Source: Actinomycetota bacterium (GTDB lineage: Bacteria > Actinomycetota > Actinomycetes > Nanopelagicales > Nanopelagicaceae). Taken from it: 39,001 bases of DNA. Within the stretch, counting starts at the first letter, position 1, and the number at the start of each line of letters is the position of its first letter. Below, piece after piece: positions 28,877-38,800 of the stretch. Location: NCBI GenBank assembly GCA_041192285.1, contig JBEENC010000001.1, forward strand, positions 1 to 39,001, written 5' to 3'. The position numbers and the translations under genes are program-made. The notes beneath the pieces are model-generated. The model made no database searches, was not told the origin of the DNA, and saw nothing but the letters and a program-made list of their open reading frames with translations.

Positions 28877-29905
28877 CTACTTTGAAGTTGGAGTTGGCGC
28901 GCTCACAGGTTTGCGCGTGAAATCTGGCTCTTTGTCAGTAAGGGCAACCCACACTTGTCCTGGTGCGAACTTTATTTCTGCCCCAGTTGCATCTGTCCAT
29001 GTTGTTGGCGATAGAACATCTGGGCGATTCCACGTTGCTTGGATCACAGTTCCATCGCGCAGTACGTAACCCTTTCCGGTTCCTACCGTTTGAGAGAACG
29101 GAGTATTTCCACCGAACTTATCTCCGTACTCAGAAGGCGTAATAGAAACTAATTGGATAACTAATGTGGTTGGACCTAAGTTTTTTCCTAGATCAGAAAC
29201 GTCAGGTAACGAATTAACACTTAAAAACCAGCGGCTACTGGCGCTATCCCAGCGGGCAGAATATTTCTGTGCCGGCCAATGCATCGTAACATCGATAATT
29301 TCAAAACCCTGATTCTCCAATTTATCTGAGAAATTCCAACCGATATTTTTTGCCGAGTCAATAATCGTAGCCTTGCTCACTTCATTAGCCATGAGAGCTT
29401 GTGCATTAAGGAACATGGCATACGGTTGAATTCGATTTGGATCTGTTAAATAAAAGATTGGACCTCGTCGCATCGCACCGACGTCTGAAAGATTTGCAGC
29501 AGCAATCACTGGGAGCAATTTCTTTTGCGCACCGCTAAATGCAAATCCAACCCGACCATATTGGGCGAGCAGGTCAATATCGCTAATACGCGCACTGCGA
29601 ACCGGACCGATACGTGGTGGAATTTTTGATGAAAAAACTGCAGCCAATCTTGTTAGACCTCCTTCTACTTGCTCGATATAAACAACATCTGCGAACTCCA
29701 AACCAACCTGAGGACGAGCATTTGCTGTGTCATCTATCTTCACAACAAGTACCGGACCATTCTCGCCCTCTCGGCCGCTGAGCACATTGGTTTGAATTGG
29801 ATCTGAAGTCACTTGAGTGAGGTTCTGTGAAATAGATGTGCATCCTGCAGTACTTAAAACTGCCACGTAAGCAACAAAAATAAGAACTCTTTTTTTAGAG
29901 AACAT
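28877..29905 (-). CDS. DUF3048-family lipoprotein
   Basis: VKIDD...ARPQ.GL..ADVV....VEGG.TR and GPVRSAR. From ATG 29905 the protein has a basic, hydrophobic signal ending in a lipobox-like TAG|C. Confidence 0.82.
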
Positions 29906-30398
29906 CAGATTCAAACTCATAAGTAATTGGTAGCGGCGCCGTGCCGGCCAAGCGAAACAAGCGGACAATCACTTTGCTGCGCACTAAATGGGTTCTAGCT
30001 ACAGCATCAACGTGTAAGACAATTGCAATTCTAACTTTGTCCGTTAACTCAGATAACTCACGGAGCAAAACGATCTCTGCAGGACGTTGACTGCTCTGGC
30101 CATCAGCTAGCAAAAGACCCAATGCGCCAGATAATCCACTCTCGGCCGCGGATCTATTTTCAATGCGCGCCTCACGGGCTTGGTAGGCAGCTGCGGTTAG
30201 GAGCATCGCTGATGCAGGATCGGCAATCTCACTACGAGTGATTTCAAGTGCAATTGCCGCTCGACGTTGTAAAAGTCCATCTAAATTGGCCCAACTGGTT
30301 TCCACTCGATGATGCAATCGATCTAAACGAGTTGCCAAAAAAGTTAAGTACCAAATGAATACCAGGAGGAAAATCCCGACGATCACAAAGGTCTTCAC
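29895..30398 (-). CDS. Conserved actinobacterial LemA-like membrane protein
   Basis: N-terminal TM, RLDRLHHRV, ESGLSGAL and VRLFRLAGTAPLP..FE; usual neighbour downstream of pimA. Confidence 0.75.
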   Translation of the reverse strand: MKTFVIVGIFLLVFIWYLTFLATRLDRLHHRVETSWANLDGLLQRRAAIALEITRSEIADPASAMLLTAAAYQAREARIENRSAAESGLSGALGLLLADGQSSQRPAEIVLLRELSELTDKVRIAIVLHVDAVARTHLVRSKVIVRLFRLAGTAPLPITYEFESDVL

Positions 30399-32471: not shown

Positions 32472-33065
32472 TTAAATCGCGCGTTTTACAATTATTAATC
32501 GTTGAAATGTTGTTATTACGCCCAGTATTGCTAGCGCCCAAGCACTAATCGAAAGTGCGTAAGGCGCGCCTAGGCCATGAAATCCTGTTCCAAACAAAAC
32601 GATAATCGCTCGTTCTGTGCGCTCGGCAATGCCGCCACTGCATGCGATATTCATGCTCTCAGCCTTTGCTCGGATGTATGGAATAAGCATTCCCGTAACC
32701 AGGCATACTAAATAAATTATTGAAAGATGATCATCTTCTTGGATTAAATAAATTGCTATACCGCAAAGAACTGCTGAATCAGAAATTCTGTCAACTGTTG
32801 AATCTAAAAATCCACCCCACTTGCTTGCGCCTTGAGAACTAATTCGAGCCATCGCTCCATCAAAAAGATCGCTGAGCATGAAAAAACTAATTACCAGCGT
32901 TCCAACAAAAAACTCTCCTTGAGAGAAGAAATAGAACGCACTAAGCACAACGCAGATTGCTCCAATTGCAGTGACTGCATTCGGTGTTAATCCGATTCGT
33001 AGGAAGAATCGAGCCACCGGAGAAATTATTCGCGTGACCGCAGGTTTAAAAACTTCGCTAATCAT
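32472..33065 (-). CDS. pgsA: CDP-alcohol phosphatidyltransferase (phosphatidylinositol phosphate synthase)
   Basis: TPNAVT and D.FDGAMAR...WGGFLDSTVDRISD signature, YIRAKAE, AERTER. Start set to ATG 33065. Confidence 0.92.
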   Translation of the reverse strand: MISEVFKPAVTRIISPVARFFLRIGLTPNAVTAIGAICVVLSAFYFFSQGEFFVGTLVISFFMLSDLFDGAMARISSQGASKWGGFLDSTVDRISDSAVLCGIAIYLIQEDDHLSIIYLVCLVTGMLIPYIRAKAESMNIACSGGIAERTERAIIVLFGTGFHGLGAPYALSISAWALAILGVITTFQRLIIVKRAI

Positions 33066-33072
33066 TGGGTAC

Positions 33073-33082
33073 ATCGTAGGCT
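33073..33082. promoter_or_regulatory. Overlapping bidirectional -10 elements (minus TACGAT, plus TAGGCT)
   Basis: Minus: TACGAT (33078-33073), 7 nt, ATG 33065. Plus: TAGGCT (33077-33082), 6 nt, ATG 33089. The hexamers share the central TA. Confidence 0.65.
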
Positions 33083-33088
33083 GAGGCC

Positions 33089-33673
33089 ATGCCATCTCAT
33101 AGTCCGCAACCACGCATCAGCGTCTACGGACATCCAAGCGCACAGCCAGAATCTGTGGCCGACCTCTTTGGTGCTACCTACAACACTGATGCCGGCGGTT
33201 CTGAAGAGGTGGCGATATTTGTCATCAATCCAAACACCGGTGTCGATGAAAAAACCATATCTAATTGGACCGCTCTTGATGAGTTCCAAACCCCTCGACT
33301 CATTGTTGTGACGAATATAGAAAGTGGTGAAGCAGATTTCGATGACGCCGTGTTACTTGCTAACCGACTCTTTGATCAGGTTGTTACTCCTTACTTGGTA
33401 TTACATGATGATTCCGGTGCACCCTGCGCTCTGATTAGTTTAGAAACGCAGGAAATTACTGATTACACAAGTAATCCTTCCACAGTAATTCCTAGCGAGC
33501 CCGAACATAAAACTTTAGTCAGTGAATTTGTTGATGAATATAAATCACATATGGCAGTCATGGGTGAAGGATCTTTTGCGGCTGGGTTACTTTTTCCTGC
33601 AATTCCGCTGTGGATAGAAAAAAATATTGGCGTCGATATTGTTAAGCAGTATCTAGCAGAAATTAATCGTTAA
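33089..33673 (+). CDS. Miniaturised EF-G2-derived protein (degenerate G domain plus G' insert only)
   Basis: Segments align by eye to the translational-GTPase G domain (AIFVINPNTGVDEKT..W, PRLIVVTNIE...ADFD, PYLVL...ALISL...TDY, FPAI....KNIGVD). It occupies the divergent pgsA/HIT position of EF-G2 in Streptomyces. Confidence 0.7.
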   Translation: MPSHSPQPRISVYGHPSAQPESVADLFGATYNTDAGGSEEVAIFVINPNTGVDEKTISNWTALDEFQTPRLIVVTNIESGEADFDDAVLLANRLFDQVVTPYLVLHDDSGAPCALISLETQEITDYTSNPSTVIPSEPEHKTLVSEFVDEYKSHMAVMGEGSFAAGLLFPAIPLWIEKNIGVDIVKQYLAEINR

Positions 33674-34196
33674 CCCAACCTGCTGATAAGTCACTACGTG
33701 TTTGAGCCAGTAATTGCGGCAATACTTTAGTTTGACCAATAATTGGCATGAAGTTGGCATCTCCGCCCCAACGAGGAACAACGTGTTGGTGAATGTGTTC
33801 TGCAACTCCGGCGCCCGATAACGCCCCTTGATTCATTCCAAGATTAAATCCGACAGCATTGGAAACCTTGCGCAAAGTCTTCATCGCTTGCGCACTTAAG
33901 AATGAAATTTCATTTCGTTCTTCCTCCCTTAAATCAGTTAGATCAGCAACGTGCCGATAAGCGCAAATAAGAACGTGGCCTGCGTTATATGGATATAAAT
34001 TCATCACTACGTAAGCAGTTTTACCCCGATGAACAATTAATCCTTCTTCATCCGTCAGTGATGGGATTGTGCAAAAAGGACATGCGACGCTATTTCCTTC
34101 AAGTGGTCTGTTTTCGCCCTTCAAATAATCCATTCGGTGCGGAGCCCACAATCGCGACCATGCATCAGGAATTCCTGCTCCACCTTCTAGATGCAT
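33663..34196 (-). CDS. HIT-family protein (Ap4A phosphorylase-like, Rv2613c type)
   Basis: RLWAPHRM, CPFC, NLYPYNAGH, GFNLGMNQG..GAG...HIHQHVVPRW; downstream of thrS. Confidence 0.9.
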   Translation of the reverse strand: MHLEGGAGIPDAWSRLWAPHRMDYLKGENRPLEGNSVACPFCTIPSLTDEEGLIVHRGKTAYVVMNLYPYNAGHVLICAYRHVADLTDLREEERNEISFLSAQAMKTLRKVSNAVGFNLGMNQGALSGAGVAEHIHQHVVPRWGGDANFMPIIGQTKVLPQLLAQTRSDLSAGWVND

Positions 34197-38025: not shown

Positions 38026-38098
38026 GCGGACGTAGCGCAGTTGGTAGCGCGGAACCTTGCCAAGGTTCAGGTCGCCGGTTCGAACCCGGTCGTCCGCT
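38026..38098 (+). tRNA. tRNA-Gly(GCC), CCA not encoded
   Basis: GCGGACG/CGTCCGC acceptor stem, GAACC-TTGCCAA-GGTTC anticodon arm, GTTCGAAC T-loop; TAGATT -10 at 38006-38011. Confidence 0.96.
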
Positions 38099-38161
38099 CT
38101 GATTCACCGTCACTTACATATCTTTACTCATGTAATAGATAAAAAGTGGCGGTCTTTCTAT

Positions 38162-38235
38162 GGTGGAATGGCCGAGAGGCGAGGCAAGGGACTGCAAATC
38201 CCTCTACACGGGTTCAAATCCCGTTTCCACCTCCA
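38162..38235 (+). tRNA. tRNA-Cys(GCA), CCA encoded
   Basis: GGTGGAA/TTCCACC acceptor stem, U discriminator, AGGGA-CTGCAAA-TCCCT anticodon arm, GGTTCAAATCC. Confidence 0.96.
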
Positions 38236-38294: not shown

Positions 38295-38642
38295 ATGAGT
38301 GCACATGATCAATCACAACGACCATGGGGTCACTATGAAATCTTGCAAGAAAGTGCAATTCATAAAACTAAATGTATTTATGTGCAACCTGGAAAACGCC
38401 TGTCATATCAGCGCCATCAAAAGCGCGCCGAACATTGGTTCATCGTCCAAGGAAGCGCCGAAGTAACACTTGATGGAAAAGTTTCACAACTTTCATCAGG
38501 TGACACAATCTCGATTGGTATTGGTCAACTGCACCGAATCGCAAACATCGGAGACAATGAAGTTATCTTCATCGAAGTTCAAACCGGCACATACTTTGGC
38601 GAAGATGATATTGAGCGTATCGAGGACGATTTCGGTCGCTAA
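38295..38642 (+). CDS. Stand-alone type II phosphomannose-isomerase C-terminal cupin domain protein
   Basis: RPWG.Y, VQPGKRLSYQRH..RAEHW, HRIAN and IEVQTGTYFGEDDIERIEDDFGR, matching the ManC/AlgA C-terminal cupin. Confidence 0.88.
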   Translation: MSAHDQSQRPWGHYEILQESAIHKTKCIYVQPGKRLSYQRHQKRAEHWFIVQGSAEVTLDGKVSQLSSGDTISIGIGQLHRIANIGDNEVIFIEVQTGTYFGEDDIERIEDDFGR

Positions 38643-38671: not shown

Positions 38672-38743
38672 GGACGATTGGCTCAGCGGTAGAGCACCAC
38701 ATTGACATTGTGGGGGTCACTGGTTCGATCCCAGTATCGTCCA
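38672..38743 (+). tRNA. tRNA-Val(GAC), CCA not encoded
   Basis: GGACGAT/ATCGTCC acceptor stem, CCACA-TTGACAT-TGTGG anticodon arm, GGTTCGATCC; TATAGT -10 at 38654-38659. Confidence 0.96.
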
Positions 38744-38800
38744 CGTTTTCGAACGAATCGCGGCCTTTCAATTCCCATTTATGTTTGCTACTCTCGGAGT

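Follow-up and report, generated by a model that had tools for sequence, protein, structure and literature searches.

The window, meaning the whole 39,001-nt stretch of DNA that was analysed, carries an unbroken 194-aa ORF (here called mini EF-G2) between a divergent pgsA-like gene and a convergent HIT-family gene (Table 1), as the original prediction had read this locus. The 3′ ends of mini EF-G2 and the HIT gene overlap by 11 nt, and the conserved start spacing indicates that pgsA most likely begins at the ATG at 33065 and not at the GTG at 33113. Across 82 short-form loci (a set that leaves out four truncated or broken loci), pgsA is divergent in 82/82 and HIT convergent in 79/82. In genus g38 (L096, L097) HIT is absent, and the short EF-G2 gene converges straight onto thrS. 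Elsewhere in the window, a 167-aa membrane-type ORF with no clear Pfam match lies 3′ of a pimA-like gene (29895–30398, –); a preprint mentions a LemA-like protein at that operon position (after pimA) in mycobacteria. Genes for tRNA-Gly (38026–38099), tRNA-Cys (38162–38235) and tRNA-Val (38672–38744) are all located on the + strand, with a 115-aa ORF (38295–38642) between the latter two.

Table 1. Features of the mini EF-G2 locus (positions in the window).
Feature	Position	Strand	Basis
mini EF-G2 gene (194 aa), domain I lacking the GTP motifs, the switches, the helical hairpin of G′ and domains II–V	33089..33673	+	
P-loop remnant, residues 14–21, GKT lost	33128..33151	+	alignment with full-length EF-G2
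Most conserved segment, residues 83–112: helix D (D83/F84/D85/D86, R93), then G′ hairpin (H106/D108)	33335..33424	+	
Long G′ helix, residues 137–161, acidic stripe E139/E146/E150; followed by the 24-residue deletion	33497..33571	+	
TANNNT –10-like hexamer TAGGCT, 6 nt 5′ of the mini EF-G2 ATG, predicted leaderless promoter	33077..33082	+	sequence pattern
TANNNT –10-like hexamer TACGAT, 7 nt 5′ of the pgsA ATG	33073..33078	–	sequence pattern
pgsA-like CDP-alcohol phosphatidyltransferase, divergent neighbour	32472..33065	–	Pfam PF01066, E 7.5e-15
HIT-family gene, convergent neighbour	33663..34196	–	Pfam PF01230

Between the two divergent genes, the two TANNNT hexamers lie on opposite strands and share 2 nt, 6 nt from the start codon of mini EF-G2 and 7 nt from that of pgsA. 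Of 84 short-form loci, 76 have this overlapping 10-mer pattern, and in 68 the two start codons both fall in range; the exact 10-mer is unique in the 831-kb genome. Neither hexamer was listed by a sigma-70 scan, because that scan requires a –35 box. The rule behind them is mycobacterial, TANNNT-only and leaderless promoters being described as common in mycobacteria (PMC3898074), and both hexamers are sequence patterns. The –10 and leaderless ATG originally assigned to the gene thus stand as a prediction (TAGGCT, overlapping the pgsA-side hexamer), and mini EF-G2 and pgsA would both be leaderless and co-transcribed from the overlapping –10 pair. The full-length (g31) and g29 forms described below have the pgsA-side hexamer alone. 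Furthermore, the six loci of one Planktophila-like subclade (L019, L021–L025) keep the overlapping pair with no start 6–8 nt beyond it, and carry a second TANNNT hexamer 7 nt before a later GTG. Two RNA runs held 6–8% of the sequence words. In one of these (X1), pgsA and most of mini EF-G2 were covered by a 4.8-kb contig that belongs to a relative (about 88% alike), and the other (X2) yielded none; the X1 contig is not evidence of expression, since such contigs lack strand and start and may derive from DNA.

Homology searches and structure comparison confirmed that the 194-aa ORF is domain I of EF-G2 by descent. The NCBIfam EF-G2 model NF009377 matched residues 40–147 (E 7.1e-15; 54.5 bits versus a family cut-off of 890), Pfam GTP_EFTU matched sub-threshold (E 0.016), and the best sequence match in the PDB was M. 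smegmatis EF-G2 (9k0z, E 5.5e-10). An AlphaFold model built from 127 sequences (pLDDT 91.5) aligned in Foldseek with EF-G chains (TMq about 0.62–0.81), and VIA-align placed 191 of its 194 residues, G′ included, on EF-G residues 4–283 (Z 19.1, rmsd 3.0), a fold shared with domain I of canonical EF-G (EF-G1). The profile and structural similarity to translational GTPases on which the original prediction had staked its domain I assignment is therefore present. Actinobacterial EF-G2 (NF009377; PDB 9K0Z/9K10; EFG II, PMC3150367) provides the best match in both family and structure, and is the direct ancestor. From the ESM Atlas came only Actinomycetota clusters without annotation and look-alikes of GTP_EFTU.

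Alignment with full-length EF-G2 and E. coli EF-G upheld the motif matches first drawn by eye. Strand 1 is retained with a GH remnant of the P-loop from which GKT is gone, the stretch from switch I to switch II is about 57 residues shorter than in full-length EF-G2, the G4 motif TKLD has become TNIE, and the G5 region is colinear. The G′ subdomain, initially taken to be retained, is so for its sheet and first long helix (as is helix D), but it is not whole, a 24-residue helical hairpin having been deleted. The stop codon follows immediately after domain I, leaving domains II–V absent from the gene, as had been noted at the outset, and a tblastn search using three full-length proteins gave no further EF-G2 piece (domains II–V) from the 61%-complete genome. 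A split EF-G2 gene is ruled out for the assembled part, since this search gave no second piece. Because domains II–V are gone, mini EF-G2 is without the tRNA-mimic arm and most ribosome contacts. It resembles actinobacterial EF-G2 in its helix-D/G′ residues and in its pgsA-side locus (shared with other Actinomycetes), but unlike EF-G2 (about 720 aa) it lacks G1, G3, G4, G5, the switches, the G′ helical hairpin and domains II–V. In terms of EF-G2/EFG II membership, it thus has the homology and the G-domain fold (with a partly deleted G′), and has neither the five-domain architecture nor the family score; the G1, G3 and G4 motifs are missing from the short forms as well.

The loss of GKT and the degeneracy of NKxD were likewise borne out by motif counts in 82 short and 23 full-length forms. 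G1 was intact in 0/82 short forms versus 23/23 full-length forms, G3 was present in 0/82 versus 23/23, and the G4 pattern in 1/82 versus 22/23. G1 and G3 are in fact absent in all 105 eroded sequences that we compiled. Combining a G-domain fold with the absence of nucleotide-binding motifs while being under selection (see below), mini EF-G2 fits the class of pseudo-GTPases, and it is predicted to bind no GTP. Pseudo-GTPases such as CENP-M and the pG1/pG2 domains of p190RhoGAP keep the G-domain fold as a nucleotide-free interaction module; these are eukaryotic and Ras-like, whereas mini EF-G2 is a stand-alone bacterial protein derived from a translational GTPase. A sensor of guanine nucleotides or ppGpp with a rebuilt pocket seems very improbable, even though Planktophila-like forms partly retain G14, H15 and S17 from the P-loop: the P-loop Lys/Thr and G3 are gone in 82/82 short forms, the G4 Lys/Arg is found in just 6/82, and the remnant itself varies across genera and falls in the region of highest dN/dS (0.21).

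Mini EF-G2 proved real and conserved, and wider in distribution than first described. A total of 1837/2007 candidate proteins of similar length matched it; Candidatus Planktophila, Nanopelagicus and Nanopelagicaceae are among the named members, most of which are annotated as hypothetical and a few as EF-G. Matches were present in 357/368 genomes of the order (its own genome and further ones with a completeness of 80% or more), covering 17/17 genera. Five of the 11 match-less genomes were checked and also lacked pgsA and HIT, so that these misses are likely assembly gaps. Among 80 genomes picked from 14 other genera of the family, two (g31) carried a full-length gene (frames of 746–749 aa) and six (g29) an intermediate (frames of 354–363 aa, about 322 aa coding), the remainder being short, so that the length intermediates looked for at this locus do exist. 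The 82 short-form loci encode 185–219 aa. In a FastTree tree of five neighbour proteins from 42 loci, the short forms grouped together to the exclusion of g31 and g29 (support 1.00), indicating one origin; the branching of g29 versus g31 received support of 0.16 and 0.78 in FastTree trees. What had appeared to be a remnant peculiar to one genome is instead a family-wide gene.

The placement of EF-G2 on the pgsA side, which the original prediction ascribed to Streptomyces, was recovered in families other than that of the window, where full-length EF-G2 lies beside pgsA in 10/11 loci, supporting an ancestral position. Judging from synteny and from the neighbour-gene tree, in which the full-length g31 is a close outgroup, mini EF-G2 is a descendant of this pgsA-linked EF-G2. 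Across the class, 103 of the 110 matches found beyond the family are in frames of at least 700 aa; the remaining seven comprise five frames truncated at contig ends, a frameshifted one and one without domain IV. Unpublished genomes (G042, G050, G059, G411, G417 and G533) feed this and a few other tallies alone and are the sole basis of no claim.

Codon models yielded an omega of 0.07–0.10 for mini EF-G2 in five clades of 6–9 loci, in comparison with 0.05–0.11 for pgsA, 0.05–0.07 for the acyltransferase and 0.02–0.04 for HIT and thrS. For the copy in the window and its two closest relatives, omega was 0.074 and 0.131, and close pairs in general gave a dN/dS of 0.05–0.18. By region (five regions, 14 hand-picked close pairs), dN/dS was lowest at residues 83–127 (0.061) and highest at residues 1–38 (0.21). 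The unfiltered pairwise median of 0.41 was set aside, since it is driven by saturated distant pairs and pgsA by the same measure gives 0.29. The frameshifts, variable lengths and dN/dS near 1 named beforehand as marks of decay are thus not what the family displays. That mini EF-G2 would be a slowly decaying pseudogene, or DNA retained purely as promoter or spacer between operons, is hardly credible and already largely refuted. This reading could draw on the 0.41 median, on outright gene loss in several lineages, on the reduced synonymous change in the first 38 codons and on three broken copies (one frameshifted, in a genome that is 41% complete, and two interrupted by stops, of which one lies close to the 3′ end), but it is at odds with the low omega and close-pair values and with the narrow length range across the sampled genera. 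Moreover, loss is easy elsewhere, yet none is seen in this family.

A profile search of 1.84 billion proteins revealed many relatives of 220–600 aa without the later domains, although some of these may be fragments and the query was biased to domain I. Besides the short form, three complete eroded forms were found at the same pgsA locus (I+V-like, I+II and I only). The g29 form consists of domain I without P-loop and a weakly domain-V-like tail (hhalign against domain V, E 0.009, probability 4.6%; no Pfam EFG_C match). In family f58, genus g145 has frames of 330–364 aa in 8/8 genomes, with one member matching EF-G domains I+II in fold (TMq about 0.7), the domain II assignment of the tail being weak by profile (E 0.1) and supported by fold; genus g192 has domain I only, with G′ whole, in 2/5 genomes. 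A second neighbour-gene tree joined f58 to a full-length lineage (0.996), apart from the family of the window, which implies that at least two erosions were independent. On these separate branches the eroded forms all retain domain I and drop domain IV, the domain that translocation is reported to require (PMC3150367).

Several further forms were noted along the way. Genus g29 (L048–L053) has an extra ORF of ~197 aa that lies upstream of the EF-G2 remnant, on its pgsA side and in its orientation (e.g. L049:2828-3418 +), and of which the product is hydrophobic with a short charged tail. Domain-I-only remnants of about 225–250 aa, with G′ whole and a degenerate P-loop, occur in f58 (L208:618-1517 – and L209:553-2028 +) and also in the unplaced proteins P0271, P0212 and P0177, and I+II remnants occur at the same locus in L135, L136, L185, L186 and L202–L207 (f58 g145 and two named-record contigs). 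EF-G2 forms of 500–580 aa without domain IV, but with III and V, are represented by L145 (G408), P0173, P0197, P0176 and others.

The loss of the gene bears on the proposal that mini EF-G2 might act in the cytoplasm on phosphatidylinositol/PIM synthesis (PgsA, PatA, PimA), as a partner or regulator with a shared predicted promoter. The invariably divergent pgsA, the overlapping –10 pair and the persistence of other lineages' eroded forms at the same locus would all fit such a role. However, 10/10 pgsA loci from lineages without an EF-G2 gene keep pgsA together with the acyltransferase or the thrS-HIT linkage, with thrS-(HIT)-pgsA running as one same-strand series, indicating that loss is easy and that the lipid genes do not need mini EF-G2. 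In addition, the second –10-like hexamer in six loci of one subclade implies that the shared promoter is not obligatory, and the adjacency, being ancestral, may be inertia. This part of the original prediction is weakened accordingly, and we consider it unlikely. In the passages covered, a mycobacterial interaction-prediction preprint does not mention EF-G.

All 105 eroded sequences keep D83 and R/K93, and nearly all keep acids at positions 85, 86, 108, 137 and 139. Position 65 has changed from Ala to Asp/Glu in all four eroded groups, being acidic in 101/105 eroded versus 1/23 full-length sequences. The best-kept residues (D85, D/E86, D125, D137 and R93) are not common to four canonical EF-G1 sequences, and this favours a role specific to EF-G2 over a common stalk contact. 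Mini EF-G2 further differs from EF-G1, which persists separately in relatives, in lacking the catalytic and nucleotide residues, in its reversed charge at position 86 and in the loss of the E224/E228 equivalents within its clade. Around G4, Arg81 (23/23 full-length forms) is acidic in 65/82 short forms, and the G4 Lys and the Arg five residues on become non-basic or acidic, which argues against rRNA contact. The median net charge is –20, and the same region of full-length forms carries –0.09 to –0.125 charge per residue; by this comparison the acidity of mini EF-G2 is ancestral and not new.

Our preferred reading, to which we give a probability of roughly one in three, is that mini EF-G2 acts as a nucleotide-independent binding module, probably at the bL12 stalk, because the known partner of the retained face of domain I is the C-terminal domain of bL12 (bL12-CTD). 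Acids are nearly invariant at E146 (80/82 short forms) and E150 (82/82), and are found at position 153 (the E224 equivalent) in 59/82 and at position 157 in 38/82; by helical spacing, E146, E150 and position 153 would lie on one helix face. Helix D of EF-Tu is reportedly in contact with the stalk protein L7/L12. For EF-G, the bL12-CTD is described as binding G′ at E224/E228 (PMC5887453), and an acidic G′ patch that contacts L7/L12 is reported to be conserved in EFG II (PMC3150367). For M. smegmatis EF-G2, ribosome-dependent GTPase activity is reported to be low and binding to 70S and 50S to occur with domain I displaced from the sarcin-ricin loop (10.64898/2026.05.25.727771), and the protein has been tied to stress (10.64898/2026.05.25.727771; 10.1101/2022.08.30.505801). 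An EF-G2 ancestor that was nearly GTPase-dead yet ribosome-binding would agree with a stalk-binding remnant, as would the retention in 357/368 genomes and an omega close to that of pgsA.

Several observations nevertheless speak against the stalk. The protein in the window has S153/V157 in place of E. coli E224/E228, and over the set that it forms with its closest homologs 77/79 have Ser/Ala at the E224 equivalent and 76/79 Val/Ile at the E228 equivalent, while position 153 is Gln in the six I+V-like forms. The 24-residue deletion moreover takes away the helices directly behind the E224/E228 patch, the conservation is EF-G2-specific and not EF-G-general, the acidity is inherited from full-length forms, and the acids may be purely structural. 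As for bL12 itself, no gene was found in the 61%-complete assembly of the window's own genome. Among bL12 C-terminal domains, 25/30 have a one-residue insertion that g29, g30, g31 and an outgroup lack, an imperfect match to the short form.

The same residues could alternatively serve an EF-G2-specific partner, or a small ligand or metal, other than the stalk, via D83-D86, R93, H106, D108, E139 and H140, as a second job of full-length actinobacterial EF-G2. We regard this possibility as tentative. These residues are common to full-length EF-G2 and all four eroded groups and mostly absent from EF-G1, position 65 became acidic upon erosion, and the dN/dS minimum lies at residues 83–127; on the other hand, H106 is not retained in two eroded groups, and capping and turn roles account for part of the pattern. 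Indeed, D83-x-x-D86 and DxG may be plain helix-cap and turn motifs. Distinctly unlikely, finally, is a small acidic holdase that isolates the chaperone activity of G domains from translational GTPases. Such a role would need neither GTP motifs nor domains III–V, and the G domains of EF-G and EF4 are reported to show chaperone activity in refolding assays (PMC3505967), but the activity described there involves no specific residues, whereas polar positions of mini EF-G2 are near-invariant, and canonical EF-G, EF-Tu and IF2-sized GTPases persist in 5/5 genomes checked.

Returning to binding at the bL12 stalk, erosion would leave the nucleotide-independent outer face of domain I, the acidic residues replacing basic ones around G4 would cause loss of rRNA docking, and the surviving outer face may meet the bL12-CTD and thereby affect translation. 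In its fullest form, this would be a stand-alone pseudo-GTPase that caps the bL12 stalk as a cheap, GTP-independent brake on translation-factor recruitment, carved repeatedly from EF-G2 in streamlined freshwater actinobacteria, a scenario that is possible but doubtful.

In the openly available literature that was searched, we found no paper joining pseudoGTPase, elongation factor and bacteria, nor any on a truncated EF-G2 of the acI group; the terms elongation factor, EF-G and fusA do not occur in the main text of PMC12817590. The role of EFG II/EF-G2 has been called unknown (PMC4342817). Mini EF-G2 is near-universal in an order described as the most abundant freshwater bacterioplankton (PMC12817590), and yet it is mostly annotated as hypothetical in databases. 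Evolution has in this respect performed a repeated deletion analysis, in which genomes of 1.1–2 Mb drop the GTP site and the tRNA-mimic arm and keep domain I. This localises the unassigned function of EF-G2 to a well-predicted 21-kDa protein with few residues to mutate and, if mini EF-G2 does cap the stalk, would reveal a hidden job of actinobacterial EF-G2.
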